From Macrostomum lignano (Eukaryota): DNA of 64,000 bases. Made by a program: the position numbers and the translations under genes. Below, piece by piece: positions 3,464-57,990 of this stretch. The stretch spans positions 434,001 to 498,000 of the forward strand of contig NIVC01000151.1 of NCBI GenBank assembly GCA_002269645.1, given 5' to 3'. Position 1 is the first letter of the stretch. Each line of letters opens with the position of its first letter. Below the pieces are notes generated by a model. That model was not told where the DNA came from, searched no databases, and saw only the letters and a program-made list of their open reading frames with translations.

Positions 3464-3817
3464 AGTAGTATGTAAAAAGACGAGTACAGACCCAGAACCC
3501 CCTTTTTAAAATATGCGTTTTTAAGGTCTAGAGGGGGGACACGGGGGGAAATTTAAAGAACACATCTAAACACCCTCCAACACCCTCCAACACATAAAAA
3601 CACATCTAACACATAAAAACACATCTAACACTATTAACACTTCGAATCAAGTCCCCCGTGTCCCCCCTCTCTAGACCTTAAAACGCATATTTAAATAATG
3701 TCTGATCTGTGCTCGTCTTTTTACATACTACTACACACACAAACTCTCTAGAACCCGTCGCACGCGCCGCAGGCGCGAAGGGTCTTTTTCTGTTACTAAA
3801 AATGAGCCGAGTTTACA
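3464..3817 (+). repeat. Left terminal inverted repeat of the Polinton
   Basis: Reverse complement of 20055-20408; in the stretches compared I saw one substitution (AATAATGTCTG vs AATAAGGTCTG). Confidence 0.97.
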
Positions 3818-4087
3818 TGAATTTCACATGATACATGCTAACGAATATAAAAAATCATGTGCTGTTTTACACAAAATGCACCGAGGACAGAGAATAAAAG
3901 CGTCTATTGTGCTACAGCGGGGCAGGCCATTTTTGGATAGAGAATCTTTTGTGTTTGCGCCATCTATATTTTCTATACAAAAAAAGAGTAAAAAAGAGCT
4001 ACAAAATAAAACCGCTCGAGATGCTTGCACACTACCCATTCTTTAGTGTCTGCAACTTAATTTTTCTGTTACTAAAAATAGACAAAA

Positions 4088-5494
4088 ATGACACACGTTA
4101 CACATATGCAAAATATGAATGAATTGCAGGTAGGAGACCCAGTTGAATACCGAGGTGAGGGTCTTTTTGATGTGGTTGGAACAGCAGCAAACTTCGTTAA
4201 AGATAATATGGGTCTTATAGGCCAAGCAGGCTCTGCAGCAGGTTCTATAACAAACGCTGTAAAGGGTGGAATTGAAGCAGCGAGGGCAGTAGAAGAACTA
4301 AAGAAATTGAGAGAATTTAACGACACCCTCTCGCAAATAAAAGCAATAAAAGATTTGAAACTAGCGCAGGAAGCAATTCAAGCCGCACAACCAACAGAAA
4401 CCCCCACGAAAAGCACGCCAATAAGTAATAAAGATATTCAGGATTTTAATAAAATGTTAACCACAATTAAAGGCGGAAAAGGATTAAAAAAATTTAACAA
4501 TATAAAAATGGACACGGATAATGAACGGCTACATTTTATAGGAGAAATTGTAGATACTTTAAATCTAGATGATAATAAACATAGCCACGCAATGTTAAAA
4601 AGATTGGATCGGTTAGGTAAAAAACTTGACTACGACATCGATACATTTAAACTTGCTGCAAAATATGCACAAGAAGGAAGGCCAATATCCTTTAAGAATC
4701 ATGGTAGAAATTATAGGCTGACAGACTCAGATGTAAAATTTTTATTGGAGACTCACACTAAAAAGGACGGCGGGTTGTTACCCATTTTACCAATTCTTTT
4801 AGGCCTCGGAGCAGCCGGAGCAGCCGGTTTAGCAGGCAAAAGAATTCATGATAACCGAAAACAGTTAGCAGAATTAAAAGCAAAACAGGGGGGCATACTT
4901 CCACTTGCAACTTTGTTACCAATAATTTTTGCAGGAATAGGAGCAGCTGGAGGAGTTGCTGGTGGAGCAGCTGGAATTGCAAAAGCAGTAAATGACAAAA
5001 AAGCTGCGGATGAAAAAGCCAAAAGAGAGGCCGAATTTCAAAGACAGCAAATAACACAGGATGCTCAATTCAAACAGAAACTCATTGACACCATTAATAG
5101 TAGTTCAGCAACAGCAGAGCAAAAAAGAAATTCAGAAGCTAGGTTAGTAGCCGGAAAAGGTTTAATTTTACAAGGCACAAATCACGGCGATGGTTTGGTA
5201 CTAAAAGGAACAACCCAAGGAAGTGGAGTTGTCGCAGATAAACTACAGGAATTTGGTCAAACTTTAGAAAAAACGGGTGAGAAAGCTAAAGGATTTTTTG
5301 ATAATATTGGAGCTAATTTTAGGCCGGCAGTTCAGAAGATTTTTACTAAGTTAGGAAAAGATTTTAACATAATTGAAAAACACGACGGAAGCGGATTATA
5401 TCTCGAAATGAGACCAAAAGCAGGTTCAGGAATTTTCTTAAATTCAAACGTTATGGGCAATGGACTACTGTTACCAAAAGCAGATCTCGAATAG
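4088..5494 (+). CDS. Polinton virion core/membrane-active protein with adenovirus pX-like hydrophobic segments (GasderminX-like class)
   Basis: 468 aa. Segments GGLLPILPILLGLGAAGAAG and GGILPLATLLPIIFAGIGAAGGVAGGAAGIAKAV resemble the adenovirus pX C-terminus (GGxLPxLIPIIAAAIGA). Repeated GxG[LIV]xL motifs. Confidence 0.6.
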   Translation: MTHVTHMQNMNELQVGDPVEYRGEGLFDVVGTAANFVKDNMGLIGQAGSAAGSITNAVKGGIEAARAVEELKKLREFNDTLSQIKAIKDLKLAQEAIQAAQPTETPTKSTPISNKDIQDFNKMLTTIKGGKGLKKFNNIKMDTDNERLHFIGEIVDTLNLDDNKHSHAMLKRLDRLGKKLDYDIDTFKLAAKYAQEGRPISFKNHGRNYRLTDSDVKFLLETHTKKDGGLLPILPILLGLGAAGAAGLAGKRIHDNRKQLAELKAKQGGILPLATLLPIIFAGIGAAGGVAGGAAGIAKAVNDKKAADEKAKREAEFQRQQITQDAQFKQKLIDTINSSSATAEQKRNSEARLVAGKGLILQGTNHGDGLVLKGTTQGSGVVADKLQEFGQTLEKTGEKAKGFFDNIGANFRPAVQKIFTKLGKDFNIIEKHDGSGLYLEMRPKAGSGIFLNSNVMGNGLLLPKADLE

Positions 5495-5578
5495 GCTCCT
5501 GGGGGGAGGGTCTGGACGCCAAAAACGCAAAATTAAAAAATCAATAATTCAAACATTATATAAATTTTATTTTATAAA

Positions 5579-8500
5579 ATGGAATCTAATTTAGCTCAAA
5601 TCGACAAACCTAATATAAGAGCCGAAATGGAAGCACAAATTAGAGCAGAAATAGAAGCACAAATTAGAGCAGAAATAGAAGCAGAAATTAGAGCAAAATA
5701 TGAAAAACGTTTAGAAAGACAATTAAATGATATTGACAACCCCCAACCACAAAGACAAAATGGAGCTGAAGTAATAGATATAGATATAGATATAAATACA
5801 AATTATAAAGAATATTTTAAACAAATGAAAGATAAATTAAAGACCATATTAAACAATTATACTATAAGGCCAAATAACAAACGACAGCCAATTAAGTATA
5901 AAATAGAAGTTGAAACGGAATTTAAAAAACCAAATATACTTAATGCAAATTCAGAAATTGAAGTAATAAATAACTTTTCACAAGAATCATATAAAACATT
6001 ACTATCAATGAGAAATTACGACAATCAATTTAATCAAATAGAAGCTGAGTTTGATGAATGGATAGATAAGATGACAGAAAACGGATCTGGGTTTATATTT
6101 GTATCTTGTAATTCAGCAACAGTAAAGATTGTTCCTATTGAAATTCTTAAAGGGCGATCACATATGAATCCAGGATTTAAATCACACATGATCATAAATC
6201 CAGACAATAGTGATAATAAATGTTTATTATGGTGTTTATTAATTCATAAATATCACAATCAAGTAGAATCACACACTAATAAAATATATAATTATAGACA
6301 ATATGAAAATGAAATAATAATGGAAAACATATCATACCCAGTAGCCATAGATGATATATATAAGATTGAAAAAATGAATGGGTTAAATATTAATGTGTTT
6401 ACAATTGAACAGCCAGAAGAAGAAAATCCAACCGATCGGACTCCGTCCGCGACCCATCAGGTCGATAAAGATTGGTATAAGAAAAACTGTTATTTAGTAA
6501 AGCCAGCAACTGATATAACAGCACCCGATCAAATCGATCTTTTGTACATACAGAATGAAAATGAAACACATTATATCTACATAAAGGACATTAGTTCATT
6601 TTTAGAAGTAAATAAAAATAGAATGCTATTATGTAGAAACTGTTTCACATTTAAAAAGAATGAAACAGCTCTTAAAAATCATCAACGATTTTGCTTAGAT
6701 CATAAATTTACTAATGTTGTAATGCCAGATTATGAAGATGCAACCCTAAAGTTCCAACAACATTATATGGCAATTAAAAAACCAATAGTAATATATGCTG
6801 ATTTTGAAGCAACAAATGTTCCCTTAAAAGAATCACAGACAGTATCTGATGGCGAATGCACAAAAAATTAGCACAACAGTTTCCGAATAGTTATTGTATA
6901 TATGTTCATTCTGTAGCAGATCATATATTTAAATCAAGGATGATTACTTACCACGGTAAAGACGCAGCAAAACGCATGGCAGAATCATTACTAAATGCAT
7001 TTGAAGTTATACAAAATCAATATGATAAATTATCAAAAAATATTATTATGACAGATAAGGATAGAGACAATTATAAAAATGCAACAAATTGTTTTATGTG
7101 CAAAAGGTATTTAAGTAAGAATAATAAAATACGAGAACATTGTCATCTAACGGGAAAATATCGTGGGGCAGCATGTAGATCATGTAACGCAAAAGAAGGA
7201 AAAGGCTGTAAGGAAATACCAGTATTTTTTCATAATGGTTCCGGATATGATTTTCATTTCTTAGTTCGAGAATTGCTACATTTAGGAAAGGATGAATATG
7301 AAGTAAATATATTACCTAAAACATCAGAAAATTACATATCAATAACATATGGTAAGAAATACTCCCATCTAGTTTTTCTAGACTCCTTGAGATTCTTATC
7401 AACCTCCCTAGCGAATGTTGTTTCATCATTAGTTCCAAAACCATGGGATTTAGAAATAGTAAAGAAAAACTTTCCAATACTATTGAATCGTTTCAAAAAA
7501 GAAAAACTATCCGAGGAAGAACTAATGCTATCAACTCGTAAGGGCATCTATCCATATGAATATGTAACATCTGAAAACGTATTTAGTGATACTCAACTAC
7601 CCTCAATTGATAAGTTTTATTCAACATTATCACAAACAAACATAAGTGAATCGGATTATGAACACGCTCAAAAAGTATGGAAATACTTTAATTGTAAAAC
7701 ATTTAAAGATTATCATAATCTATATCTTGAAGCAGATGTTCTCCTATTAGCTGATGCATTTGAAAACTTTAGGAATCATACATATGAGAACTTCAAAATT
7801 GATCCCGCATATTGTTTTAGTGCACCAGGTTTAACATGGGCATGCGGTTTGAAACATACAGATGTTGAGATTGATTTACTAACTGATCATGATATGTTGT
7901 TAATGATTGAGAGAGGAATTCGCGGCGGATTCTCGGGGGTACTAGGAGATAGATATACTAAAGTAAATAATAAATATCTACCAAATTATAATAAAAAAGA
8001 AAAATCATCATATGTATTATATCTAGATGCAAACAATTTATATGGCGGTTGTATGAAACAAAAATTACCAATAGCTGATTTTCAATGGGAAGACGATCCC
8101 GATTATTACAAAAACATTCCCGAAGGAAGGGGCTGTATTGTAGAAGTGGATTTGCAATATACTCGAGAAGCAAAAGCAAAAACATATAAATATCCTTTAG
8201 CTCCAGAGCATTGTTCAGTTAATGAAGATGATTTATCACAAACACAAAAAGATTATCTTAAAGCAGATAATGCAAAACATCTAGCAACAAAAAAGTTAAT
8301 ACTAAATTTACATGATAAGAAAAACTATGTAGTGCATTATAAGCTTCTACAATTTTATGAAAAGCAGGGATTAAAAGTGTCTAAAGTACATCGAACAATA
8401 TCGTTTATTGAGGAAGATTGGTTAGCTAAATATATTGATTTTAATTCAAATCAGAGACAGACGTCAAAAACAAATTTTGAGAAAGATTATTGGAAATTAA

Positions 8501-9324
8501 TGAATAATGCTTTTTATGGAAAAACGGTTGAAAATATTAGAGATAGAACCCAATTCCATTTAGAAAAGGATATTGATAAATCAAAGAAATATTTCTCAAA
8601 ACCTAACTTTAAAGATTTTATAAAATTTGATGATAACTTTATGGGTATTTATATGAGAAATAAAACAACAAAATTTCTTAAACCAATATTTATTGGAATG
8701 GTAGTTTTGGATTTTGCAAAGCTAGTAATGTATGAATATTATTATGATGTTATAAATAAAACATGGCCAGATAACTATCCAATATATGCAGACACTGACA
8801 GTTTGGTATTTAAGGTTGAAACACCAGACGTCTATAAAGATATGGAAAAAATTAAGGATACATTGGATACCTCCGACTATCCGGATAACCATCCCTTAAA
8901 ATCGAATCAAAATAAAAAAGTTGTACTTAAAATGAAAGATGAATTAAATAGCAAAATCATAACCGAGTTTATAGCAATAAGATCAAAATGCTATGCATTT
9001 AAAGTTTTAGGACAGGAGGGAGAGGTAAAAAAAATAAAAGGGGTATCAAGGGCAGCAGTTAAAAAGATAACATTTGATGATTATAAAAACGTACTTTTAG
9101 ATTATCTTAATACAATCGAAAATTATCATGCTCCACAATATCGATTAAATTCAGATAAGCATAAGATGTTTGTCATCGAGACAGATAAAAAAACATTAAG
9201 TCCATTTGATGATAAAAGGTATTTAGATGATAAAATTAAAACATTTCCATTTGGTTTAAAAGAAGAGATAAAAAATATGATAAAAGATAAAAAAACAAAA
9301 AGAAGATATTATAATCAATTATAA
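5579..9324 (+). CDS. polB: Protein-primed family B DNA polymerase (pPolB), split by one frameshift at ~6862-6868
   Basis: ORF 5579-6871 (KGRSH..NPDNSDNKCLLWC, ExoI IYADFEA) plus ORF 6856-9324 (endonuclease-VII-like C..C...EHCHLTGKYRGAAC..CN, FFHNGSGYDFH, RKGIYPYEY, YLDANNLYG, KLMNNAFYGKT, YADTDS). One extra A in the A6 run joins them as ...ECTKKLAQQFPNSY. Confidence 0.95.
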
Positions 9325-9510
9325 AGAATACAAAGAAGCAATAAATAATTATTATTACGATTGTGATTGCGAATCCGAATGTGAATGTGAATATAATACA
9401 TTTCTAGAATATAAAAACGACATAGAAAATTATTATGCAACATTTCCAAAAGAACTTAAAAAATTAAATAAGGAAAAGTCTTGGATAACTGGAAGAGATT
9501 AACAGAAAAA

Positions 9511-9852
9511 TTACTTGAAAAAAACTAAAGCATGTAATTGTTTAAGCATAATATCCATTTCGATTTCGTATTTTATAGAACACCAATTATCCTCGCAGTC
9601 GGCAGGGTAACTTAAACATTCTTTTATTTTTTTCCTAAGTATTTTTATTTTCCTAACAAGTCGATCGATTTCAATTTCAATTACTGTTTCAGCATAAGCA
9701 ATTGCGCTTTTGATAAAACGCTTTCTTTTATCCATCTCATATCGGATAGGAAACATATCATCCCCATAGTCACTATAAAACATAGTATTTATTTTTTTAT
9801 TAATATCATTAAGTTCACGCTCTTTAGTGATAAGGATCATCTGTATCTCCAT
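9511..9852 (-). CDS. Polinton hypothetical protein (113 aa)
   Basis: Intact ORF with the element-typical AAAATG start; no recognised domain. Confidence 0.6.
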   Translation of the reverse strand: MEIQMILITKERELNDINKKINTMFYSDYGDDMFPIRYEMDKRKRFIKSAIAYAETVIEIEIDRLVRKIKILRKKIKECLSYPADCEDNWCSIKYEIEMDIMLKQLHALVFFK

Positions 9853-9868
9853 TTTCTTATAAAAAAAT

Positions 9869-10204
9869 TTAGTCTTCGTCTTTATCTTCCTCCCAAACGG
9901 AAGCCAATTTTACAGTCCTGTCACTCTTTTTATTTTTTGTTTGTTTTAGTTTAAATTGCAATCCATTAGCCGGATTATATTTCATAATGAACGCTTTCGG
10001 TTTATTAATAACTAAAACTGGAAAATTTTTAACATCATTACCACTTAGACATAGGACTGTATGCCCATCCAATTGTAAAAATATCGATTGAAGTCCAATA
10101 AATTTAACCTGTCTCAAACATATAATATTATATTCTTTATTCTCCAACATATTGGGGGTGACATAATTAATCACATTAGAATCAGTTTTGAACCAACTTT
10201 CCAT
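9869..10204 (-). CDS. Polinton hypothetical protein (111 aa)
   Basis: Intact ORF with TAAAAATG start, tandem with the previous ORF. Confidence 0.6.
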   Translation of the reverse strand: MESWFKTDSNVINYVTPNMLENKEYNIICLRQVKFIGLQSIFLQLDGHTVLCLSGNDVKNFPVLVINKPKAFIMKYNPANGLQFKLKQTKNKKSDRTVKLASVWEEDKDED

Positions 10205-10230
10205 TTTTAATCTAAAAAAATAACAAAAAA

Positions 10231-10656
10231 ATGAAAGACATTTATGAATGTAAAAAGTGTAACGTGACTATGCATAGAGCTCAAACAGCAAACGGAGATA
10301 TATATCATATGTGCTATTCATGTTCTAAAATATATCAATTTGAAAAAACAAAAAAGATTGAAAACTCATATTACTATTTTAAAAACACAATTTTAAGAAA
10401 TCTTACAAGGGACATTTCTCATCCAATTTTAATTCCCGGAAATAATGTTTATTTATATAACAACTTTTTCAGTTTAAATAAAGGAAAGGGATTAAGTTCG
10501 AAAGACTCCGAAAGGATTTTAATTTTAGTTGGATATTATTTTAACTTTCTTATTCGAGAGAATACAAAGTTTATCAGGATAGGTAACATACCTAACGAAA
10601 TGTTACTGAAAAAGTCATTGGAATTTTTATGTATTGATAAAATCATAGCCAGCTGA
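10231..10656 (+). CDS. Polinton hypothetical protein with N-terminal zinc ribbon
   Basis: 141 aa; CKKC...CYSC motif; AAAAAATG start. Confidence 0.6.
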   Translation: MKDIYECKKCNVTMHRAQTANGDIYHMCYSCSKIYQFEKTKKIENSYYYFKNTILRNLTRDISHPILIPGNNVYLYNNFFSLNKGKGLSSKDSERILILVGYYFNFLIRENTKFIRIGNIPNEMLLKKSLEFLCIDKIIAS

Positions 10657-12639
10657 TGTGCTACCACAAACGGCCGCGCCACGAATAAAATGTGCAGCAT
10701 CTGCTCCTCCAGTTCGAGCACCAAAACCCATAAGAGTTCCCGTTTTATCTAGCTCTCCCCAAGTGCCACTATCATATGTAAAAAAGTTTTGTCCAATTAG
10801 CGTATAAACTTTGGTTGATACATTGTATGTGCTTATTTGATACCAAATTCTTTGATTTAAAATATTAATTTCAAAAAGATGCCAATCACCATTATCAATA
10901 TTAGCATAGGTTATAGTTTGATCAGCATCATTAAGAACATCATTACGAACTGTTGCACCGTCTGATTTTATATTACTCCAAACAACTCCAACTCTATCAG
11001 TCCATTCACTAGCAAACACAATCAAGCCGGCGTTGGTTGTTAACCCGGATCCAAATTCGGTTGTTGGCCGTTCATGACAGTATGCATAAAACCAAACCGC
11101 ATCTGCACCATCTCCTGTAGAATTAGCAACTCGGAAATAGAAGGAGACGGATATATTACGAAAATGGGTGAAATTAAATTGTAACGCCCCAGAGCGACCC
11201 GATGCTTCATCAGTAATTCTAGCTCCATTTTGATAATCAATATAAGTAGCATCACCAACAAAACTTCCTGTTGGAAAAATATCGCCAGCTGTGGTTGGAT
11301 TTTGATATCCAGTCCAATTGCAAATTACGGGTTCGTACAAAGCGGCATCAATTGCTGGTATTCCATCCAATTTTATTTTATCGTTAAAAGACATTCGCCC
11401 ATCCGCCGTTTGGGTTACTCGCGTATCAACATAACCTTTAGTAACAACAGAAGTGTTATCGTTTATAGTAGAGATATTAGTAATTGTATTATTACCCATA
11501 TCAATTGATTGATTAACTACTCCTAAATTTAAATCAAGAATTGTAAACGTCTGTCTATAAATCTGGAAGGTTGACAGACCTGGGTTGGTTGAACCCGAGG
11601 TTGATGTAAGACAGAACAATCTGAAATATGAATACGTTTTATCAAAATTTTGTGTTACATTAATTGTTCGAGTTGAGTTATTTATTTCTACAGAACTATC
11701 CGCAGGTATTAATACGTCCCAACTTGTATTGTCATTACTGCCCTCAAATCGCCACGATGCTGGGTGCTCGGTTGATGGCGATGGCCTACCACGTAAATCA
11801 ATTTTATAACACATTATTGCGGAAGGGCATTGGACTTGAATCCAATAATCGGTTTGAGTATTATTTGTTGCCCAATCTGATGAGTCATCACCATCAAACG
11901 CTTTCCAGCTTGCAAAATCGGTTGTATTAAATGCGGTGCTTGCGGTTATTGCAAAACCATTTCCACTCCAATCTGCCATGGTAGGTACGTGGCCGGTTTC
12001 AACCGTTTGGAATCGATCTTGTTTTGGGGCTCCACCTCCAACTAAATTATCAACCTCCGTTTTGGTATAAGAATCAGCAACGTTTCGTTTTAAATTTAGG
12101 GAATTATCAACTTCAGTTTTGGTATAGGAATCAGCAACATTTCGTTTTAAATTTAGGGAATTATCAACTTCGGTTTTGGTATAAGAATCGGCAACATTCC
12201 GTTTCAAATTTAAGGAATTATCTATTTCAGTTTTGGTATAAGAATCGGCAACATTCCGTTTCAAATTTAAGGAATTATCAATTTCCGTTTTGCTATACGA
12301 ATCGGCTGTATCTCTTTTTAAATTTAATGAATTATCTATTTCGGTTTTGGTATAAGAATCGGCAACATTCCGTTTCAAATTTAGGGAATTATCAATTTCC
12401 GTTTTGGTATAAGAATCGGCAGTATTGCGTTTTAAATTTAATGAATCATCTATTTGAGTTTTGGTATAGGAATCTGCAACATTTCTTTTTAAATTTAGTT
12501 TAGTATCAACTTCACTTTTTTTATAACCTTCATCTTCATTAATATATCGGTTGTCTCCGAAGGTAACACTTATTCCACCAGACGTCCCACCGCCAGTACT
12601 TGTTGTTCCGTTCCATGAGGGTGTTCCAGAAAATAACAT
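10627..12639 (-). CDS. Fibre/adhesin-like protein: 19-aa shaft repeats, discoidin (F5/8C)-like domain and ConA/L-lectin-like domain
   Basis: 670 aa. About 9 copies of DSYTKTEIDNSLNLKRNVA; then AFDGDDSSDW...WIQV...WRFEGSNDNTSW (discoidin-like); an IDMGNNTITNI motif; and a C-terminal beta-sandwich with GALQFN...ISVSFYFRV...GADAVWF (lectin-like). Confidence 0.75.
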   Translation of the reverse strand: MLFSGTPSWNGTTSTGGGTSGGISVTFGDNRYINEDEGYKKSEVDTKLNLKRNVADSYTKTQIDDSLNLKRNTADSYTKTEIDNSLNLKRNVADSYTKTEIDNSLNLKRDTADSYSKTEIDNSLNLKRNVADSYTKTEIDNSLNLKRNVADSYTKTEVDNSLNLKRNVADSYTKTEVDNSLNLKRNVADSYTKTEVDNLVGGGAPKQDRFQTVETGHVPTMADWSGNGFAITASTAFNTTDFASWKAFDGDDSSDWATNNTQTDYWIQVQCPSAIMCYKIDLRGRPSPSTEHPASWRFEGSNDNTSWDVLIPADSSVEINNSTRTINVTQNFDKTYSYFRLFCLTSTSGSTNPGLSTFQIYRQTFTILDLNLGVVNQSIDMGNNTITNISTINDNTSVVTKGYVDTRVTQTADGRMSFNDKIKLDGIPAIDAALYEPVICNWTGYQNPTTAGDIFPTGSFVGDATYIDYQNGARITDEASGRSGALQFNFTHFRNISVSFYFRVANSTGDGADAVWFYAYCHERPTTEFGSGLTTNAGLIVFASEWTDRVGVVWSNIKSDGATVRNDVLNDADQTITYANIDNGDWHLFEINILNQRIWYQISTYNVSTKVYTLIGQNFFTYDSGTWGELDKTGTLMGFGARTGGADAAHFIRGAAVCGSTSAGYDFINT

Positions 12640-12648
12640 TTTTACTGT

Positions 12649-13089
12649 CTATTTTATAGAATCTAAAATTATCTTAAATACTTCGGGGGTTAAACGAGCT
12701 TCATTCGAAAGTCGATATAAAAAATACAACGCCGCTTGTCCGCAATAACTTTTGTCAAAGGTTTGAAACTGTTCGTGGTGATCTCCACATAAACGATTTT
12801 TAGTATGATTAAATTTATCTTTTATTTCCTGTAACGGAGGAAGCGCGTATGAATCAAAAAAATAAACAAGTTTAGGTTTTGAATAAACTGCTGACCAATG
12901 AACACCATTTTCTTTTGTCGTTTCGATGTTAACAATGTAAGATCCATATATTGGTAAATCTTTTATCTCATCCCGCATAACACATCTGAATGGTTTTATT
13001 TTTAATTGTGTCGCCCAATTTGTTAATTCGATATTGCTTGTTGTGTCTGTTCCATATCTTTGTTTAAAATCGCCCCACGTCATGGTCAT
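12649..13089 (-). CDS. Adenain-like cysteine maturation protease
   Basis: 146 aa; catalytic pattern GVHW...YFFDSY...QFQ...SYCG. Confidence 0.9.
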   Translation of the reverse strand: MTMTWGDFKQRYGTDTTSNIELTNWATQLKIKPFRCVMRDEIKDLPIYGSYIVNIETTKENGVHWSAVYSKPKLVYFFDSYALPPLQEIKDKFNHTKNRLCGDHHEQFQTFDKSYCGQAALYFLYRLSNEARLTPEVFKIILDSIK

Positions 13090-13090
13090 T

Positions 13091-13263
13091 TTATGTTCCT
13101 GAAAAACTCTTGGTTTTGGTTAGTTTCGTAGGTTTGGATTTTAACAGTTCCTTTCGGATTTTTTCTGCCTGTAATTGTTTCAATTTTGTTAATTCGATTT
13201 CATAATTATCTTCAGCTTTTTTAACTTTTTCCGTTTGTTTTTTAAAGCATTGTTGTTACCCAT
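13091..13263 (-). CDS. Small basic protein (~57 aa) starting MGN, reconstructed across a one-base frameshift at ~13240
   Basis: AAAAATG GGT start. One extra A in the A6 run gives MGNNNALKKQTEKVKKAEDNYEIELTKLKQLQAEKIRKELLKSKPTKLTKTKSFSGT*, filling the gap between penton and protease. Confidence 0.45.
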
Positions 13264-13307
13264 TTTTACTATGGGAAACGGACGATGTCCTCGAACCTTT
13301 GGTTCGG

Positions 13308-14093
13308 CTAAACCTGTTTTATACGTAAAATTACTGTTATTGACTGCCCACCAAAACTTATTAATCTATCGCTTTCATCTACAATCCTAATATAAATCGA
13401 TTGAACATTATATTGATTTAATGGGTAATATATGGGGGTTTGAGGTGAAACAATCATTTTCTCTCCAATTGGAACAGCAAGAAATGGGATTGAATAAATA
13501 ATTCCACGTTGAACCAAAACTCCGTTATCGTCTGTTATATAACCACCGTTTGATATGTCGGTTGTTATATTAATTGTATTTACTCCACCCTCTATATTTC
13601 CAACTGTATCGCCGGTGCTTGATGCGGTAACTATTCGAGAATTAAATCCAAGTATGGTTCTGAGTGAATTTGCAATTGTGAAATCAACCTGATATCCAGA
13701 TTCTAGTGATAGTGTGAATCTGCCAGATGGTAAATCAACACCGATAACAATTGCACCTGCTACCCAATCTCCATTTGCTGTTAATTCTCCTTCTATATAA
13801 GCATTCAAATCAGTATAGCTATACGCACCCGGGCTAACACTAAATGTTGTCCAATTGGCTCCGGAATCTTTAGAATATCTAAATTGATTATTTGTTGCAT
13901 TAATTAATTGAGGCATGTTAAAAACCGAAAATAATATCAAACCAATTTGATAACTTAGGCTTTGATCGAGTTTTAGCGGATCGCGCAATTGAATCCGTTG
14001 TTCGCTAGTTGTCATTATAAACTGTAATGTTGTACTAAATTTTGAATTAGTTCGATCTACCAATTGTTTAATAGTATTTAAATTTGTTGTCAT
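13308..14093 (-). CDS. Minor capsid protein (penton, single jelly-roll)
   Basis: 261 aa with Polinton penton-type motifs PGAYSYTDLN, SLRTILGF and C-terminal PIYYPL...IYIRIVDESDRLISFGGQSITVILRI. Confidence 0.85.
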   Translation of the reverse strand: MTTNLNTIKQLVDRTNSKFSTTLQFIMTTSEQRIQLRDPLKLDQSLSYQIGLILFSVFNMPQLINATNNQFRYSKDSGANWTTFSVSPGAYSYTDLNAYIEGELTANGDWVAGAIVIGVDLPSGRFTLSLESGYQVDFTIANSLRTILGFNSRIVTASSTGDTVGNIEGGVNTINITTDISNGGYITDDNGVLVQRGIIYSIPFLAVPIGEKMIVSPQTPIYYPLNQYNVQSIYIRIVDESDRLISFGGQSITVILRIKQV

Positions 14094-14113
14094 TTTTATA
14101 GTGGGAAATTGTG

Positions 14114-14874
14114 CTAAGTCTCTTCCTCGTTATCTTCTTTTATCAGATCTTTTAAGATTCGATTTATCCTTTCTAACCTAGGGTTAATATATATGTGTCT
14201 GTATTGGCTGTCATCCCAAATTTTTTTACACATACTTTTAAATGGTTTTATATCCAACCCGGGATTAAATCTAGCGTGTATATTTTGTAAATCATAATTA
14301 TCTAATCAAACATTACACAACAACTTGCATTCTTTTTTATAATCGATTCTAATTCTCTAAAGGACTGTGTTAAATAAAAAGCTCCAATTCCATCTCCTCT
14401 ACCACTAACAAAAATTTCCTTTTGTAATTCTTGATCGCCGTCGTTAATACAATCATCAAAAATAATTAGTGTTTTATCATTTTTTGGAATTTGATCATAG
14501 GCTAATCGGGTTGATACTCTAACGGTTGGGGCGCGTTCGGTGGTGTTTTCCGGTTCTTGCGCCATTGTTTTACACAAATTCTCAATGTCATCGAGTTTAA
14601 ATCGCGGTTCGTCATCATCCTCATATTGCTCATATGCTCTTAACATTCTAAACAAGATATCTTTTTTTAATTTGTTTTTTAATCCATGTTTAAGAAATTC
14701 ATAATATTTTATTCTAGGTTTGTTAGTATAAATTAATAAATTATTATAGTCTAGCATTCCGTCGGTTGTTAACAGGTCATAAACAAAGTGTGTTTTTCCT
14801 TTACCCGACCCACCAATTACTAAACAAAGAAAAGGATCATTTGGAAATATTTTATAGTGTTTTGCTTTTACCAT
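14114..14874 (-). CDS. A32/FtsK-like DNA packaging ATPase, with one frameshift at ~14304
   Basis: Walker A GGSGKGKT, Walker B IIFDD, then SGRGDG...LTQS. The C-terminus (LDNYDLQNIHARF...FKSMCKKIWDD...EEET*) continues in the -1 frame after TTT GAT TAG. Probable ATG at 14874. Confidence 0.9.
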
Positions 14875-14890
14875 TTTTAAAGATAAAATT

Positions 14891-16362
14891 TTACAGCGGG
14901 GCGTCCCGAACGATGGTGCCATCTGCTTTAGCAATTGATAAATATTCCTCTAGAAACAATACGTGGGCGTCTATTGCCTGATTACCGGTTTTATTAATCT
15001 CTAACATATAATTAAGTCCAACATTGGATACGTTTTCTTTCTGTGCCGTTAGATCATAAACAACTACTGGGTGGATGTTTAGAAACTCTGTGGGTGTGTA
15101 CTGAGGGATGGCATACGCTTCATTTTTGGCATAATCTTGATAATATTTTATAAAATCATTAACATTATTATTTGCAATATTTAGATTAAGAGGATCTTTA
15201 ACCGGATAGTATTGGTCATCAACCTGCAGGCGGATATTCTGAACATTAAACTCGTTAATAGCTGAAACCGCATTGTCTGTTGCGGTAGCTGCTTGTGCTG
15301 CTATAGTACCCGATTGAATCCAATATAAATCCCCATTTGCTCTTTTACTCCTTCTATTTGTTATCTTAAACCAAACAAAATATATCTCACCCGACGTTTT
15401 GATGTCAGTATTTGCCACTGGAATGAGTCCTGATTGTTATTAATGGTTCGCATAAAGTGTCTACGATTCAAATAAAATATTTCCTGATCATGCGTTAACT
15501 GATTATCGATGTGTTTTAAAAGCGGAGCCGTTACCTCAATAGTTGGTACGACTAATTGTATTGATGCTATACGAACTGCTATATCGGTTGAAATTGAGGT
15601 TCCATAAAGTATCCTAGGCTGATACCCACCAGATATTTGCAACTGTACCCCAAATTTTAATCCTTTCCATACCCGATTTGGTGAGAAGAACCCAAATAGT
15701 GGAAAGATTGAAAAGTCCTGCTCATATGCTGTTGCTGTGGTTAAAACCGCGACTGGGAATTTATTCTGGCGATCTATAAAACCCGTATTAATATCTTTTG
15801 TGTTAGTCATAGTGGTTACAACTAGAACTATATTGGTATTAAGATAAGCTATAAGAGCTGCGGTATCTGCACCAGCTGCATTTTGTACATTGGGGAAAAC
15901 CACCGCTTGCCCATTGCCCTTATCCGGCATCCACCCAACATTATCACCAACTTGTTTTGATAAATAAGTATAATTTAAATGTTTCAAAACTCCATTAATC
16001 TCTGCGGGGTTTGACGATGTCTCAACCTCGGCTCCATTAACGGTTAGTTGAGCTTGGGAAAAACATTTATAAAACCAATCATTTTCTATTATTATTCCAG
16101 AACGATCTGCGATATCTCCGGCTGCTAGAGCAGTTCCATCATTTCTAGTATACAACCATCTAACGCGGAAAAATGCATTTTTCATATCCAATATGGTGTT
16201 GGTTGCACCGATGTCAAAAGCTACCGTTCCGCTAGTAAAGTTATTTGTATTATCACTTGTTGGTAGGGTATAATTTAAATCTCTTGCCCTGACCTCATTA
16301 ATATACTGTCGGTGCTTTTTGAAATGAAATTTATCACTCCATATAGTTTTTGTTTCAGCCAT
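14891..16362 (-). CDS. Major capsid protein (double jelly-roll), with one frameshift at ~15369
   Basis: ORF 16362-15361 plus ORF 15418-14891. One extra T gives RVRYILFGFKITNRR, matching the Polinton MCP RY(I/V)..GFQ motif; later NIRLQVDDQYYP and VVVYDLTAQ. Confidence 0.85.
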
Positions 16363-16397
16363 TTTTTTATGTTAAAAAAGTTTTTTCATGTTAAAAA

Positions 16398-17072
16398 ATG
16401 AGTCAATTTATGGATGTTGATGGAAATTTAGCGATTTATAAAGAAAAGCAAAGATATTCTGATTTTGTTAGAAATTTACAAAAAAGAAAGTTGGGAATAG
16501 AATTAGCTGGTGAAAGACTTGCTGCTCCTTTTGTTAATCCTATTACTGGGAAAATTAGTGAGCTAGAAAAAACAGATAAAGACCTTCATGAAAAAATTGC
16601 TAAGAATACGGAGCCAAAAGAGGATGAAATTTTGGATGAGCCACCTGCTTATGATGTTGATCAAGCACTATTGAGAGTTGCAGAGATTAGGGCTGCAGAA
16701 AGGGATGGAGTTGAACAATTTCAAAGAGATGCGCCACGTAGTATTGCTGTGACAGATTTAGGTAATAATAATTATCGAATTGGTGGAGTTGATAAAAATC
16801 GGAATGAGCTATATAGAGAATTGGGTGGAGCATATAATATTATTATGAACCCTAGGGTAAGATTTAACCCTGATTTATATACTAGGGATGAATTAGTAAG
16901 TGCTAAAAATTTTTACGATGAGTTAGGAGTAAGAGCTGCTAAAAATACCAGCTTGTATAAAAGGATTGTTGATTCTATAAATAACAAGCCGGCTGTTGGC
17001 GAAGGATTTAAAACTCCACGAAAACTTGTATTAGCTGCTGCGAAAGCTGCTGGACATACAGGAATTAATTAA
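16398..17072 (+). CDS. Polinton conserved hypothetical (PZ/core-like) protein
   Basis: 224 aa; N-terminal K..L...PFVNPIT.KI motif and a late VGEGF (GxG) motif, consistent with a protease-processed core protein. Confidence 0.5.
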   Translation: MSQFMDVDGNLAIYKEKQRYSDFVRNLQKRKLGIELAGERLAAPFVNPITGKISELEKTDKDLHEKIAKNTEPKEDEILDEPPAYDVDQALLRVAEIRAAERDGVEQFQRDAPRSIAVTDLGNNNYRIGGVDKNRNELYRELGGAYNIIMNPRVRFNPDLYTRDELVSAKNFYDELGVRAAKNTSLYKRIVDSINNKPAVGEGFKTPRKLVLAAAKAAGHTGIN

Positions 17073-17095
17073 TTGTTAAATTTATTTTTTATAAA

Positions 17096-17727
17096 ATGGA
17101 AACTAAAAAGATTTGTAGTCTATGTAAAGAAGAAAAACCAATGACTATAGAATTTTTTTATTGGAGAAATGATTCAAAAAATTTAGAAATGATTGTCGAT
17201 TGTGTCATAATACTTCGTCTACGATGTGGATGAAAAACAATAAAGATAAATGGAAAGAATATAGAAAAAATAAATATCACACCGATGAAAATTTCAAAAA
17301 TATTACTCTAATTAGAAATAGAATAAATTGGGCGTTGAAAAATTTTAATGACAAGGACTATATCTCATATCTTGGTTGCACAAAAGAATTCTTTTTTGAT
17401 TGGTTAAATTTCACAAGAAATTATTATGTATCAAAAGATTATACTGGAATGTTACATATTGATCATTTAATCCCCGCTTCTTCATTTAGTTACAAAGATA
17501 ATGACCAGATGAAAAAGTCTGAACATTGGACAAATAAAAGATACTTAACTAGCGTAGATAATCGCTATAAAAAAGTTAAACAACCAACTATCGAAGAATT
17601 TGCAAAACAATTAGTGTTAACTTGTATTTTTAAGGCTATTAAAAATGAGCAATCATGCGATGCATGCGAACCGAAGGTTCGATCGGACGAAGTCCGCGTT
17701 CCTTCGGAACGATCAATTAGTGTTTGA
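17096..17727 (+). CDS. Free-standing HNH endonuclease with N-terminal C4 zinc finger, with one frameshift at ~17180
   Basis: METKKICSLCKEEK...(fs)KFRNDCRLCHN joined to ORF 17200-17727, which contains YLGCT, LHIDHLIP...HWTNKRYL...N..K as in viral HNH nucleases. Confidence 0.85.
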
Positions 17728-19283
17728 AGGAGGATTGTTGGATGTTCAAAAAGGATTAACAAGCTTACCACCAATCTTTACTACTGGAAGGTATACAAAT
17801 GAATTACACATCCCGTCTTACAACTTCGCAGGTTAACCCGTGGCCTAAGTGGTAGAAGCAAAGCTACTGCTAGTCACTATTTGTGGCGACATCTTCAAAT
17901 TGCGTGAAACCCGTCATACAGCTTCAAGTACCACTTCAATTGAGAAATCTTTTGAAGGAACAGAGGTAACTCCTCTTCCCAAAGGTAACAAGCTTGAAGA
18001 CATGGTGGCAATGCGCAGCCAAGCTCCTAAGTATTTAAATATAAGGAGAAGGTTCAGAGAGCAGACGGAGATGGGCGGTAATTTATCCGCTTAAGGTGTG
18101 CTCCAGCCTATTTCGAAAGATTTAGGGCAAACTACCCGGGACTCGGCTGGATTTAAGATTAAATCCTGATAATACTCCTAAAGCTGATTCAATTCCCATT
18201 AACGGTATTGATTGGTTAGCATACTATCATGACTTAGCATACAGAGATGCTGATAAGAACTCACCCGAGGAAGCATTAAGATTAAAGCATGAGGCCGATC
18301 GAAAAATGATTCAAGGATTAGATAACTTACAGGGCTTATCGGTAAGCCAAAGATTAACTAGGTGGATGGTTAAAAAGATTTTGCAGTCTAAAGTTAAATT
18401 TGGTTTGGGAATTAATTACAATCAACATGGAAATAATTGTGTTGAGTGTCTGTTATTAAGTGGTGGTGGGTTAAGTTCTGATGAGGCAAAGATTCTTCAC
18501 AAAGAATATCGAAAACCTAAATTTTACCGAAAGATCATGAACTTTAAAAAGAATGAAATTTGGTATGCTGATTTAATGTCTATGCCGAACGAAAGAGGAT
18601 ACAAATACATTTTAACCATATTAGATGGTTTTACTCGATATGCGTGGGCTGTTCCTTTGAAATCCAAAAAAGGAGAGGAGGTTGCTGGTGCTTTTAGAAG
18701 TCTTGGAGAAAAAAGTGAAAGGTTGTGTGTTGATGAAGGAAAAGAATTTTACAATCCTCATATGTATAAATTGTATCATTTTGAAAAAGGACAAGAAAGG
18801 AAAAAAGACGCGAATGGGGAGTATATTAATAAAATTTATTCTATTTATGGAGAAAGTAAAAACGCATTAATAGAAAGATTTAATCGAACTTTGGGTAAGA
18901 AATTGTGGTTTCAGTTTAGTCTTAATGGAAACCAAAAATGGGTAAAAATATTACCAGACGTCGTGAAAGATTATAATAACTCATATCATTCAACTATAAA
19001 GATGACTCCTCAACAAGCTTATAACAATCCTGAAAAAGTTAAAGTTACTTTTAGAGAATTTGAAAAAAAGAAAACTAAAGGTTTTAAGGTTGGTGATTCT
19101 GTTTATATCTATAAATGGAAAGATAAGTTTGAAAAGGGAAGAAAAGGATATTGGAAGATAAGTGAGAAATTTACCATCAGTAAAGTTTTAAATACAAATC
19201 CTACAACCTATATAATTGCTGATAAGGATGGTGAAGAAATATTGGGTTCGTTTTATGAGAATCAAATCATATCTGCGAACTAA
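17645..19283 (+). CDS. Phospholipase A2 (parvovirus VP1u-like, PLA2X) followed in frame by a retroviral-like DDE integrase; interrupted by a group I intron
   Basis: Exon 1 17645-17833 (...ELHIPSYNFAG) plus exon 2 18135-19283 (PGTRLDLRL...DWLAYYHDLAY...EADRK...KVKFGLG, then WYADL, LTILDGFTRY, VDEGKEF, IERFNRT, YNNSYHSTIKMTP). The spliced product would be 445 aa. Confidence 0.88.
17834..18134 (+). ncRNA. Group I self-splicing intron, subgroup IC1-like (P5abc present), 301 nt, no internal endonuclease ORF
   Basis: Pairings read from the sequence: P1 AGGU(17830-33)/GCCU(17843-46) with U.G at the 5' splice site; P10 CCCGUG/CCCGGG; P2 17848-55/17864-71; P2.1; P3 CAUCUUC(17890-96)/GGAGAUG(18067-73); P4 UGCGUG/UGCGCA; P5a CUUCAAG/CUUGAAG with A-rich bulge; L5b GAAA; P6a CUCCU/AGGAG; P7 GAGCA(18059-63)/UGCUC(18099-103); P8 GGCGG/CCGCU; L9 GAAA. 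Removal restores YNFAG-PGT in frame. Confidence 0.92.
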
Positions 19284-19293
19284 GTTCGAACAA

Positions 19294-19518
19294 TTACTTA
19301 AGACAACAGGGTAGTAAATTTTTTATAACAAACAAAAACAATATTATTACTATTATTGTTACTAATATAATTATTGACATTTGTTCAACGGTGATTAGAC
19401 TTAAATTTTCATTAAGTTCATTAATCGGCACATTTCCGATGTAGGAGTAGTTTACCTTCATTTTTTTAAATATATTTTTCACAATAAATGTCGTTTCTGT
19501 TATAGAATAATAGTTCAT
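19294..19518 (-). CDS. Small single-pass membrane protein (74 aa)
   Basis: Hydrophobic stretch IIILVTIIVIILFLFVI followed by KNLLPCCLK; AAAAATG start. Confidence 0.55.
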   Translation of the reverse strand: MNYYSITETTFIVKNIFKKMKVNYSYIGNVPINELNENLSLITVEQMSIIILVTIIVIILFLFVIKNLLPCCLK

Positions 19519-19521
19519 TTT

Positions 19522-19752
19522 TTAAATATTTTTTTCACAGTTTAAACACTGTGCTAATATAAGACTTTGCTCCCCCTTATCCCAAATATACTCTAATTCT
19601 CCAATTTCAAGCGGATATATCTTTATATCTGGAAATATATATACTTCATCTAGTATTTCATCCTTTATTAATTTTTTTATTGAATCAAGTGCATTGAATA
19701 TTGTTTGAGTTGATTCAATTATTGAAAAGTGGGGTCTGTTAACTAATTCCAT
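19522..19752 (-). CDS. Polinton hypothetical protein (76 aa), paralog of the 19756-20070 ORF
   Basis: Shares FS...IK..I...I.DEVY...D.K.YPLE..E with its neighbour. Confidence 0.6.
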   Translation of the reverse strand: MELVNRPHFSIIESTQTIFNALDSIKKLIKDEILDEVYIFPDIKIYPLEIGELEYIWDKGEQSLILAQCLNCEKNI

Positions 19753-19755
19753 TTT

Positions 19756-20070
19756 TTACATAAAAATTTCAATTTCATTCTCAGAATCACTGGTTTCATA
19801 TGAGCTATTTGTTGATTCAGAATCTATTGATCTAACCTCCCAATAATCTGAATTTAAATAATCTCCAAGTTGAAATATTAACTCTCCCTCTTGTTCTAAA
19901 TCATACATCTCATCCAACTCTAATGGATAAAGTTTTAGATCGTGCTTGTCGTCATATTTTAAATAAACTTCATCAATTATTCCGTTCAAGATATGCTGTT
20001 TTATTATCTCTGCATTTTTAGCAACAGTCTCAAAAGTATCACTAACAGAAAAGGTGTAAACTCGGCTCAT
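19756..20070 (-). CDS. Polinton hypothetical acidic protein (104 aa) whose start codon lies inside the TIR
   Basis: AAAAATG at 20070 (MSRVYTFSVSD...); DEVYL...KLYPLE motif shared with the 19522-19752 ORF. Confidence 0.6.
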   Translation of the reverse strand: MSRVYTFSVSDTFETVAKNAEIIKQHILNGIIDEVYLKYDDKHDLKLYPLELDEMYDLEQEGELIFQLGDYLNSDYWEVRSIDSESTNSSYETSDSENEIEIFM

Positions 20071-20408
20071 TTTTAGTAACAGAAAAAGACCCTTCGCGCC
20101 TGCGGCGCGTGCGACGGGTTCTAGAGAGTTTGTGTGTGTAGTAGTATGTAAAAAGACGAGCACAGATCAGACCTTATTTAAATATGCGTTTTAAGGTCTA
20201 GAGAGGGGGGACACGGGGGACTTGATTCGAAGTGTTAATAGTGTTAGATGTGTTTTTATGTGTTAGATGTGTTTTTATGTGTTGGAGGGTGTTGGAGGGT
20301 GTTTAGATGTGTTCTTTAAATTTCCCCCCGTGTCCCCCCTCTAGACCTTAAAAACGCATATTTTAAAAAGGGGGTTCTGGGTCTGTACTCGTCTTTTTAC
20401 ATACTACT
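20055..20408 (-). repeat. Right terminal inverted repeat of the Polinton
   Basis: Reverse complement of 3464-3817. Confidence 0.97.
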
Positions 20409-49900: not shown

Positions 49901-51479
49901 CATCAAGCGCCGGCTGGTGATCAAACTTTACCGCTGGCATGCGGAGCGGTGCTGGGTCTTCAAGCTGTCAGGACTGCTCGGCTGGTACTTAGTCCAGCAG
50001 TTCAGGCAGCAGCTCGTGCTCAAAGTGCTACCCAGATCGGTTTGGGTGCCCAGTCCCGAGTACAATATTTTACACGTAATATAACAGGCGTAGTGACGCT
50101 CTGTCTGTACTTTTATGGATACGAACAGGCGTGACGACGCTCTGCGATAATAGTTCGATCCCTCTGGTGTTGTGACACTCAGAGTTCATGCTGCGGCTCG
50201 AGGTGTGGTGACACTCTCGGGTGCTTCTAGTTTCGATACTGTAGGTTGTACACACTATATAAGTAACCGGTACAGTACTACAATAATACACAATATACAG
50301 CGCTGCAGTGCTACAGTGGTCACAGTCGCAGGCGTGATGACGCTCTAGCTATGGAATTACTGCTACGGCCAGGCCTCGGAAAAGCTAAAGAAGCGAATGA
50401 ACTCGGGGGTCTTATCGGTGCCAGAAACTGTGGAGCTCGTTTGAATATCGCCACCACTTGACCGCTTTATTTGCTCCCAATCAATTGAGTCCTCGCAGTA
50501 AGAGACCGTATAGACACGGCTCGCTTGAGTATGGCATGCAAAATTAAGAGTCTTCGCAGTAAGAGACTGTCTTTACGGCTCGCTTGAATATCGCTAAGTT
50601 AGTTTCAAGAGCTAGGCACGGGGCGCGGAGCGGAGAGTGGGAAGCTGGCTGGGCCAGGCTTGAGCACTATATACCACTTAACAGGGTAGAGGGGCAGACA
50701 GCGCGAGAAAGAGAGAGACGCCAAACAAAAGAGACGACCTCTCAGCCAATCAGCGTGCCCGCCGAGCAGATCTGATTGACTGGGGGCCAGAAAAGAAAAA
50801 CACAAGCCCAGCCAGTCAGTGGCCGCCGCTCGGAAAGACTCAAGCTGGGCCGAGCGCCCCCCCCCCCCAACCAGCCAGAACTGGTCTGGGGATGGCCGCC
50901 TAGGGCGCACGCAAAAACAACTCAAAAAGTGCAAGAGCACTCAACAGGCCAGACACCACAGTGTCCTGCAGACCAATGAACAGCACTGGGTCGTCAAGCT
51001 GTTACAAGTGCTCACCGAGTACCTTCAGCAGTTCCGCAGGTAGCAGATCGGGCAGCAAATGTCCCGAATGCACGTTCGCAAGAGAATGGGGCATTGCTTC
51101 CGGCAAAAATGCGACTTATTGACTTCATAACTGTTGGCAAGAGAAGGTACATTTATTTATTTCTGATTTAAGATATTTATATATTATTTAGTTTTTGTTT
51201 CTGCGTACATTGAAGTCCAACCCCCCTCTCTGAATCATGTAGCTCGGACGTGCGCTCAGCACCCACCCCCTTTTACGTAAGTGCTAGTGCTAATATATAT
51301 TTGCAGTCTCAGTCGCTCGAGAGTGTGCAACTGCGGTTTTTTTGTTAGTTAAAATTTGCATTGGGCTGCGGCCCTTAAAGTCGATTCATTTCTGTGAAGA
51401 CTCGTTTTTTGCATGACTCGACAAGAGCGCAAGATCATCTGGTAGCAGAGCGTGGTTGTTTACTCGTTACAATTGATCA

Positions 51480-57400: not shown

Positions 57401-57990
57401 CACTGCGGGCAAATCTCGGCGGGCAATTCTCGGCGGGCAAATCTCCACGGGCAATTCGCTCACGGGCAAAATGCACTGCGGGCAAATCTCCGCGGGAAAA
57501 GCTCGGCGGGCAAATTTCCACGGGCAAATCTCCTGCGGGCAAATCTCGGCGGGCAATTTGTCTGCGGGCAATTCTCATGGACCCCTACCAATCGGCGAAT
57601 CCGAGAGACGAAGAGCCACTGACGCCAAACCACTTCCTGCACGGTCAAGCTGGTGGACAATTCGCGCCGGATGTGCCCGACGACGTCGCGGCTGACCCGA
57701 GGCGGCGGTGGCGGCGCGTCCAAGAACTCGTGAGGCACGTCTGGCGACGCTGGATGCGCGAATGGCTGCCAGGGTTGCAGCCGAGAGCCAAGTGGGCGGG
57801 ACCACAGCGTGATTTACAGCCAGGTGATGTCGTCCTCGTCATCAAAGCAGACTCACCGCGTGGATACTGGCCGTTGGGACGAGTAGTCGAAGTCTACCCG
57901 GGTCCAGACAATCGAGTCTGGGTGGCCAAGGTCCAGGTCGGTGGGACGGTATTCGTGCGGCCTGTGAGCAAACTGTGCTATCTCGAGTGA
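51480..57990 (+). pseudogene. BEL/Pao gag-pol (DUF1759 gag, three CCHC knuckles, aspartic protease, RT, Pao RNase H, integrase) with several frameshifts, a stop and a MITE insertion
   Basis: IPVFSGD (gag), CGLCGEQHGVWSC / CFCCLGANH, LLDDAS (protease), ADIEEMY and YMDD (RT), FVDASQEAYG (RNase H), VDMGGP...SDNGGNF...HEVM (integrase), PLTPNHFL. Breaks at ~52280, ~52810, ~53420, ~54465, stop at 55151-55153. Confidence 0.92.
56905..57584. mobile_element. Foldback/Mutator-like MITE (680 bp) inserted in the BEL integrase
   Basis: GGG...CCC termini, ~280-bp imperfect TIR arms made of TTGCCCGC subrepeats, 9-bp TSD CTACCAATC; removal restores RPITYQSANPRDEEPLTPNHFL. Confidence 0.92.

Follow-up and report, generated by a model that had tools for sequence, protein, structure and literature searches.

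A group I intron that splits the sole GGNCC site of a Macrostomum lignano Polinton family, and a candidate restriction-enzyme-like partner

We examined a 64,000-nucleotide stretch of Macrostomum lignano DNA (assembly GCA_002269645.1, contig NIVC01000151.1, positions 434,001 to 498,000 of the forward strand; hereafter the window, meaning this whole stretch), which carries a Polinton (Maverick) element at 3464..20408 (no strand assigned). In this element a group I intron interrupts a gene that joins a PLA2 domain to an integrase, and a zinc-finger HNH endonuclease gene occupies a slot that overlaps the first exon. The original prediction, made from the sequence of the window, was that the HNH gene and the intron might form a collaborative homing module. 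A free-standing nuclease beside an intron without a nuclease open reading frame (ORF), aimed at the insertion site, remains the most probable arrangement, but the HNH gene does not appear to be the partner. The better-supported partner is an Eco47II-like nuclease that fills the same slot in other copies of the family. We estimate a probability of about 70% that this enzyme, cutting GGNCC, serves the intron as a homing and competition nuclease, with the element protected by purging of the site together with shielding by the intron.

Results

The arrangement around the intron was observed directly. Exon 1 of the PLA2-integrase gene (17645..17833, + strand) ends in a Gly codon (GGN), and exon 2 (18135..19283, + strand) begins with a Pro codon (CCN) and holds the remainder of the PLA2 domain, to which an rve integrase is joined; the fusion was seen in an intron-less copy, which matches PF08398 and rve. 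Between the two exons lies an intron of 301 nt that we call type A (17834..18134, + strand). It separates the Gly codon from the Pro codon of a PLA2 loop, within GGN|CC, and splits the sole GGNCC site. As had been proposed, it contains no nuclease ORF, and its score of 61.3 bits against Rfam RF00028 (cut-off 50, E 1.2e-13) identifies it as group I. The layout upstream was also confirmed: the HNH gene (17096..17727, + strand) overlaps exon 1 by 83 nt, the PLA2-integrase ATG being at 17645, and it ends about 107 bp from the insertion site at the end of exon 1 (17833).

GGNCC was predicted as the target from the nuclease family before any sites were counted. If the enzyme cuts GGNCC and has no methyltransferase, the element should be without the site. 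The 16,945-bp window element contains no GGNCC against 11.6 expected, the strongest depletion among 6,912 patterns (Poisson 8.7e-6). Within ORFs the count is zero, where synonymous shuffling gives 5.4 (none of 200 shuffles was as low), and 14 element ORFs encode no Gly-Pro dipeptide. For the family as a whole, 16 further stretches of 9 kb were taken and two without a recognisable element were dropped; the remaining 14 hold one GGNCC against 60.5 expected, and this sole site lies in an intron-less copy. Among 130 three-kb loci, element-internal GGNCC was found only at the junction of three intron-less copies, while four other loci have the motif within foreign inserts or flanks. Copies that carry an HNH gene are as free of GGNCC as those that carry the Eco47II-like gene. 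The controls were not depleted, with 140 sites against 128.8 expected in six loci of other Polinton families and 145 against 162.5 in host flanks. That the depleted motif is 5 bp long suggests a short target, rather than a long homing site, as the predicted specificity.

The Eco47II-like protein (167-171 aa, with no recognisable extra DNA-binding domain) matches PF09553 (RE_Eco47II) with E 1.3e-5, and 14 of the 23 relatives scanned exceed the Pfam cut-off. Its AlphaFold model has a mean confidence (pLDDT) of 87.5. When the model was compared with 48,161 chains, the best structural match was EcoO109I (Z 9.7, root-mean-square deviation 3.9, 170 residues aligned), the next row having Z 6.1. Foldseek also placed EcoO109I first (E 8e-5), followed by DdmD and AvaII, the last of which recognises GGWCC. 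The PD-(D/E)XK motif ID...ELK is retained in all 13 unique open copies, 20 of 29 copies have an open frame of full length, and the ratio of nonsynonymous to synonymous substitution rates (dN/dS) is 0.25. EcoO109I cuts RG^GNCCY (PMC3089450), Sau96I and AvaII have been classed as PD-(D/E)XK enzymes (PMC2441816), and homologues of Eco47II have been assigned GGNCC "without certainty" (PMC10305163). Fold and family together make it most likely that the Eco47II-like enzyme cuts GGNCC.

A methyltransferase was sought in two ways. None was found by Pfam among 15 window ORFs. Genome-wide, where the search covered the C5 family only (PF00145) and not N4 or N6 enzymes, there were 12 matches, none on the contigs of 102 nuclease matches. 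One relative of the Eco47II-like nuclease, P0041, is fused to a C5 methyltransferase, and this fusion is possibly the ancestral restriction-modification form.

Relatives link the nuclease to the intron itself. Among nine close homologues of the Eco47II-like protein, six end in a tail that reads as translation through the core of the window intron. A metagenomic contig, L147 (the one locus obtained from 256 candidates, and too short to test depletion, with 0.5 site expected), has the same gene with a homologous intron (80.6 bits) at the same Gly|Pro site and the nuclease ORF inside it. The same is true of a sister Polinton family in the M. lignano genome, whose integrase is about 60% identical to that of the window family and whose gene order is different. 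In this family the nuclease ORF lies within a homologous intron at the same site, as displayed in five loci, two of them with Rfam matches (88.9 and 82.6 bits). GGNCC is depleted here as well: 13 nuclease-bearing loci have 2 sites against 52.6 expected, the two falling within one flanking repeat at a single locus (L269), and eight intron-less loci have 16 against 18.8. Six of these 16 sites are at the junction, four belong to a terminal-repeat variant and the rest are scattered or in flanking repeats; at two of the non-junction sites the nuclease-bearing copies differ in sequence. These counts omit three loci (L272, L275 and L276) that are degraded or belong to the window family. In IMG/VR no related element turned up when the query was the L147 exon, the PLA2-integrase, one intron motif or an alignment of the nuclease; two intron motifs matched three giant-virus introns, all with other nucleases.

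A tree built from 36 protein sequences places the free-standing nuclease as sister to the intronic form of the sister family and nested among intron-tailed lineages (support 95/87 and 91/81), the deeper fork being without clear resolution. This position favours a move of the nuclease out of the intron and into the free-standing slot.

The relation of slot to intron was followed through the host assembly (764 Mb, 5,269 contigs), in which 22 matches to fibrillar collagen genes mark the host as an animal. Motif searches gave 139 matches to exon 2, 117 to the window intron core, 24 to a second intron type and three exact intron-less junctions (in an early pattern search, 13 of 16 matches were other families or unrelated). 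We fetched 133 family loci and classified 130, three being dropped for lacking the anchor motif. The intron is of type A in 103 copies and type B in 24, and is absent from three. The slot holds HNH-a, the allele of the window, in 76 copies, an allele with a different N-terminal half (HNH-b) in 16, a partial HNH gene in 6, the Eco47II-like gene in 29 and nothing recognisable in 3. Deletion of the HNH gene was considered for some copies and rejected, as those copies carry the Eco47II-like nuclease in the slot. On the integrase tree both slot type and intron type have a scattered distribution, and near-identical integrases occur with different modules; the Eco47II-like nuclease requires 17 changes on that tree against 24 in shuffled data (the trees omit 16 of the 130 copies). 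Two copies (L120, L144) have an inverted-repeat element, similar to one at 56905-57584 of the window, inserted in the nuclease gene.

If the HNH enzyme itself cut the intron-less junction and moved with the intron, as in classical collaborative homing, the geometry would be right. Both HNH genes are under purifying selection (dN/dS 0.44 and 0.40), and one of 20 viral HNH loci examined sits within a group I intron in the capsid gene of a giant virus. The original prediction was that HNH and intron spread together, and it counted an HNH gene present regardless of the intron as evidence to the contrary. Across Polinton copies, HNH-a is indeed present regardless: all three intron-less copies carry it, two with an open frame, and the exon flanks of one (L031) almost equal those of the window. 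Because all three hold HNH-a, this allele does not co-vary with the intron. Conversely, 29 of the 127 intron-bearing copies have the slot filled by the unrelated Eco47II-like nuclease and lack an HNH gene. In independent pairs, HNH and intron presence never changed in the same direction on either tree, a test of low power because only three copies are intron-less. The notion of an HNH gene travelling with an intron holds better for HNH-b, which occurs with intron B in 13 of 16 copies (median p over independent pairs 0.016 on one tree and 0.06 on the other), although collaborative homing and simple co-conversion would both give this association. Nucleotide diversity is highest at the insertion site (pi 0.19-0.23, against 0.02-0.16 deeper in exon 2 and the integrase), and the peak in the hypervariable last 45 nt of exon 1 is broader than a 5-bp site accounts for, which may reflect HNH targets. 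Linkage scans among copies located no HNH-a target. However, the relatives described above tie the intron to the Eco47II-like nuclease, and the purge of GGNCC would be left unexplained. We consider it unlikely that the HNH enzyme is the intron's partner; the two alleles are probably competing homing-type nucleases for the slot.

The HNH gene of the window runs from an ATG at 17096 to a stop that ends at 17727, with a frame break at an A-run (17176-17181) that leaves its 5' part, which encodes a CxxC...CxxC zinc finger, out of frame with its 3' part (ORF 17224-17727). HNH-a gave no Pfam match at E<=1 and no NCBIfam match; in PHROG, naturally open HNH copies from this genome hit endonuclease VII/HNH families (E 2.8e-6 and 7e-5). 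The catalytic DH...N...DN motif is retained in 86 of 92 HNH copies, the four zinc-finger cysteines are invariant across five aligned sequences, and the frame is open in 57/76 copies of HNH-a and 11/16 of HNH-b. The structure model, with pLDDT <50 over residues 109-189, was too poor for a fold search. There was one HNH-a homologue among 16 candidates. Inspection of the overlap with the PLA2-integrase gene revealed an in-frame insertion of mini-hairpins with GAA/TTC loops (approximately 17649..17714, no strand assigned). Such units are inserted in multiples of three both in the gene overlap and in loops of sister-family introns (L263, L269, L273), and they look like mobile coding palindromes.

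The type A intron has the P7 variant GAGCA/UGCUC. P3 is fully paired (7/7) in 97 of 101 parsed type A copies and P7 (5/5) in 101 of 103, and the pairing is kept across the other sequence variants of the sister family, L147 and type B. The folding energy of the window intron is weak evidence when taken alone (minimum free energy z-score -1.76; 6 of 100 shuffles fold equally well). The same P7 variant is present in the capsid-gene intron of a giant-virus contig from IMG/VR (L148). Intron B (L047, L054, L127 and others; 24 pattern matches) uses the same 5' site as type A and gave no Rfam match at E<=0.01 or 0.05. It resembles a chimeric ribozyme, since it joins the P2, P2.1 and P5 extension of type A to a different catalytic core. 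Its 3' splice site is ambiguous, and the in-frame options fail to restore Gly-Pro. One intron B (L131) contains a host mobile element of about 830 bp that is similar to a solo long terminal repeat (LTR), and at L030:1663 contigs run from the 5' part of the intron into sequence that differs from both types, which may point to one more variant of the intron in other samples.

Discussion

We propose that two Polinton families encoding the Eco47II-like enzyme would have purged GGNCC from their own genomes, and that the single site retained would be the Gly-Pro codon pair of the PLA2 loop, where the group I intron interrupts it. An intron-bearing genome would then be site-free and hence immune without a methyltransferase. 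An intron-less relative would present one natural site at the insertion point, would be cut there once, and would then be lost or repaired from an intron-bearing genome. A short-site restriction enzyme would thereby behave as a homing endonuclease. Unrelated viral DNA resident alongside the element would be cut too, as would host DNA were the enzyme exposed to it. In the sister family the nuclease gene is still in the intron, whereas in the window family it would have relocated to the free slot upstream of exon 1, where it alternates with the two HNH alleles, the window copy being a carrier of HNH-a. A nuclease acting in trans from the free slot would explain why 127 of 130 copies have the intron whatever the slot contains. 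We would give slightly better than even odds to a broader view of restriction without modification, in which an element armed with a frequent cutter keeps its genome site-free, the intron replaces the methyltransferase and the enzyme is both weapon and homing nuclease, while three nucleases, two chimeric ribozymes and an A-ending variant replace one another at one locus in an animal nuclear genome.

Several observations weigh against this proposal. The Eco47II-like protein scores 25.3 bits, just below the Pfam cut-off of 25.9, its identity to EcoO109I is 13-14%, and a PDB sequence search with it returned no match; for these reasons we can only infer the GGNCC specificity. A sister-family stretch (L278) has no GGNCC against 6.3 expected, yet the motif ranks fifth, not first, of the 6,912 patterns. 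The absence of intron-less copies among those with the Eco47II-like gene (0/29) is not significant, because just 3 of 130 copies are intron-less, and about 19 intron-less copies of the sister family persist in the genome. Host genes come in near-identical sets of 2-4, so assembly redundancy inflates the family copy counts; the copies are non-independent, the pooled counts are thus not independent either, and the effective replication of the site-depletion comparison is two Polinton families against two control groups. Host DNA is rich in GGNCC and unprotected, and nuclear expression of the enzyme would be lethal. Therefore, expression would have to be confined in time or place.

The terminal base of the intron presents a further difficulty, as it is A in 74 of the 103 type A introns, including that of the window (18134), and G in 29. 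The canonical G is present in the sister-family and L147 introns, and the G-binding pair of P7 is the same in A-ending and G-ending type A introns. In addition, none of four contig sets that contain intron sequence (their RNA status guessed; aligned to a copy of the common haplotype) had an exon-exon joint, a result that cannot prove absence. The hexacoral mitochondrial ND5-717 intron likewise lacks a terminal G, yet its exons are ligated in vivo (PMC6545197). That intron is mitochondrial, obligatory and very large, whereas here both terminal bases, A and G, occur among the copies and splicing is predicted. The main exon 1 length classes (126, 129, 159 and 189 nt) are all in frame and 61 of 69 parsed A-ending copies are open. 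Together with the ND5-717 precedent, this conservation of frame suggests that splicing of the A-ending intron may still occur. Either the A-ending intron splices like ND5-717, or most young copies depend on others for the fusion protein.

The depletion itself might have another source. In L148, where no copy of the Eco47II-like nuclease was detected, GGNCC is the most depleted split motif (24 sites against 67.5 expected on both strands, a ratio of 0.36), so it appears that outside enzymes can cause GGNCC depletion. The motif could thus have been purged under an outside restriction system, belonging to a helper or a competing giant virus, in which case the Eco47II-like gene would be a long-site homing nuclease or would have drifted, and the intron would be at Gly-Pro through conservation of the motif. 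Giant-virus restriction-modification systems can cut competitors (PMC7253447), the fusion of P0041 to a C5 methyltransferase would suit such an origin, and so would the equal absence of sites from HNH-carrying and nuclease-carrying copies. However, other Polinton families of the same host are not depleted. The depletion follows the two families that encode the enzyme, being stricter, within the sister family, in copies that have the nuclease, and a protein of 167-171 aa with no recognisable added DNA-binding domain fits poorly with a long site. We regard an outside source as improbable.

It is very doubtful that ordinary recombination has simply reshuffled slot and intron variants that are now relics, with no present homing and dead A-ending introns. 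In favour of this reading, recombination among copies is widespread, with trait changes at values only moderately lower than in shuffled data, terminal A is dominant and no spliced form was seen. Against it, the three nuclease genes and the integrase (dN/dS 0.08) are all under purifying selection, exon 1 keeps its frame in its main length classes and most parsed A-ending copies are open, P3 and P7 remain paired across sequence variants, and the terminal repeats of the window element are identical.

Solitary restriction enzymes such as PacI have no methyltransferase and are protected through absence of the site, as the Eco47II-like enzyme would be here, although PacI is an 8-bp rare cutter from a bacterial chromosome and has no intron. 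The closest parallels for an intron served by a neighbour come from phages. F-CphI and the psbA intron of cyanophage S-PM2, and the examples in T3/T7-like phages, likewise pair an intron lacking an ORF with an adjacent free-standing nuclease that targets the insertion site (PMC3984707, PMC10448857). Here the system would belong to an endogenous element of an animal, with a relative of type II restriction enzymes, a predicted 5-bp site and a slot shared by three nucleases. In contrast to the proposed path from free-standing to intronic, our tree suggests the opposite route, with the gene leaving the intron. The available part of PMC10448857 suggests turnover in which a new gene takes over, whereas here the same gene is found in both positions.

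The PD-(D/E)XK homing endonuclease I-Ssp6803I is likewise a restriction fold encoded in a group I intron. Homing endonuclease targets are long, often >20 bp, which avoids toxicity to the host (PMC3943268). Uniqueness of the site would here apparently come instead from removal of a short site across the whole element. Chloroviruses and marseilleviruses also encode type II enzymes, with proposed roles in degradation of host DNA or exclusion of competitors (PMC7253447). Theirs are paired with a methyltransferase, whereas here no C5 partner was found and protection would apparently lie in the absence of sites and in the intron. In Bodo saltans virus, parental and "offspring" introns of a related giant-virus class include members without an ORF that are subject to homing in trans, and masking of the target by the intron has been treated as interference competition. 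The enzymes there are HNH and GIY-YIG proteins of a protist giant virus, and the available text does not describe a genome-wide purge of sites (PMC5871332). Group I introns have likewise been described in integrated protist Polinton-like viruses (PLVs), which have free-standing HNH and GIY-YIG genes; in the portions consulted, those introns occur in few protist groups, upstream of the capsid gene, and no nuclease partner is assigned to them (PMC12220804).

The accessible parts of papers on adintoviruses, nematode Polintons and entomopoxvirus-PLV relationships describe no such intron (PMC8502044, 10.1101/2023.08.22.554363, PMC11296320). In a literature search that left most subscription journals outside its reach, we found no description of an intron, a restriction-type nuclease and a site purge in this arrangement. 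According to the text available from a 2013 review, nuclear group I introns were known only in rRNA genes of microorganisms (PMC3679873); those described here interrupt a protein-coding gene in the nuclear genome of an animal. If our proposal is true, a restriction enzyme would become a homing endonuclease with no change in the enzyme, as the genome would change instead. Since intron-less, intron-encoded and free-standing states occur at a homologous site in one genome, M. lignano offers a direct view of the debated order of mobile-intron evolution. That such an enzyme would attack the host chromosome further implies a lytic or compartmentalised phase of Polinton replication with co-infection, and such a phase bears on whether animal Polintons are true viruses.

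Other features of the window

The element at 3464..20408 has the features of a Polinton, namely terminal inverted repeats (TIRs), a 6-bp target duplication, a protein-primed polymerase B whose motifs are visible in translation, an rve integrase and a packaging ATPase, with matches to rve, the A32 ATPase and pX. The left TIR (3464..3817, + strand) and the right TIR (20055..20408, - strand) are each 354 nt and 100% identical as inverted copies. The polymerase region, which includes an endonuclease VII-like domain, is broken into two ORFs, and the putative capsid ORF seems shortened (5579-9324 and 14922-16362). The capsid and protease genes are presumably such, a labelling that we base on gene order and not on a family match. 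This copy has several frame breaks although its TIRs are identical. Of 15 listed ATGs in the window, 13 are preceded by an AT-rich stretch ending in AAAATG, which is also found before the intron-encoded nuclease. This stretch may be a shared viral promoter, and it offers a lead on which machinery transcribes these genes. Elsewhere in the window there is a probable LTR retroelement (51132-58904; 300-nt repeats, 99% identical) with an inverted-repeat insert inside it, and minisatellites are numerous.

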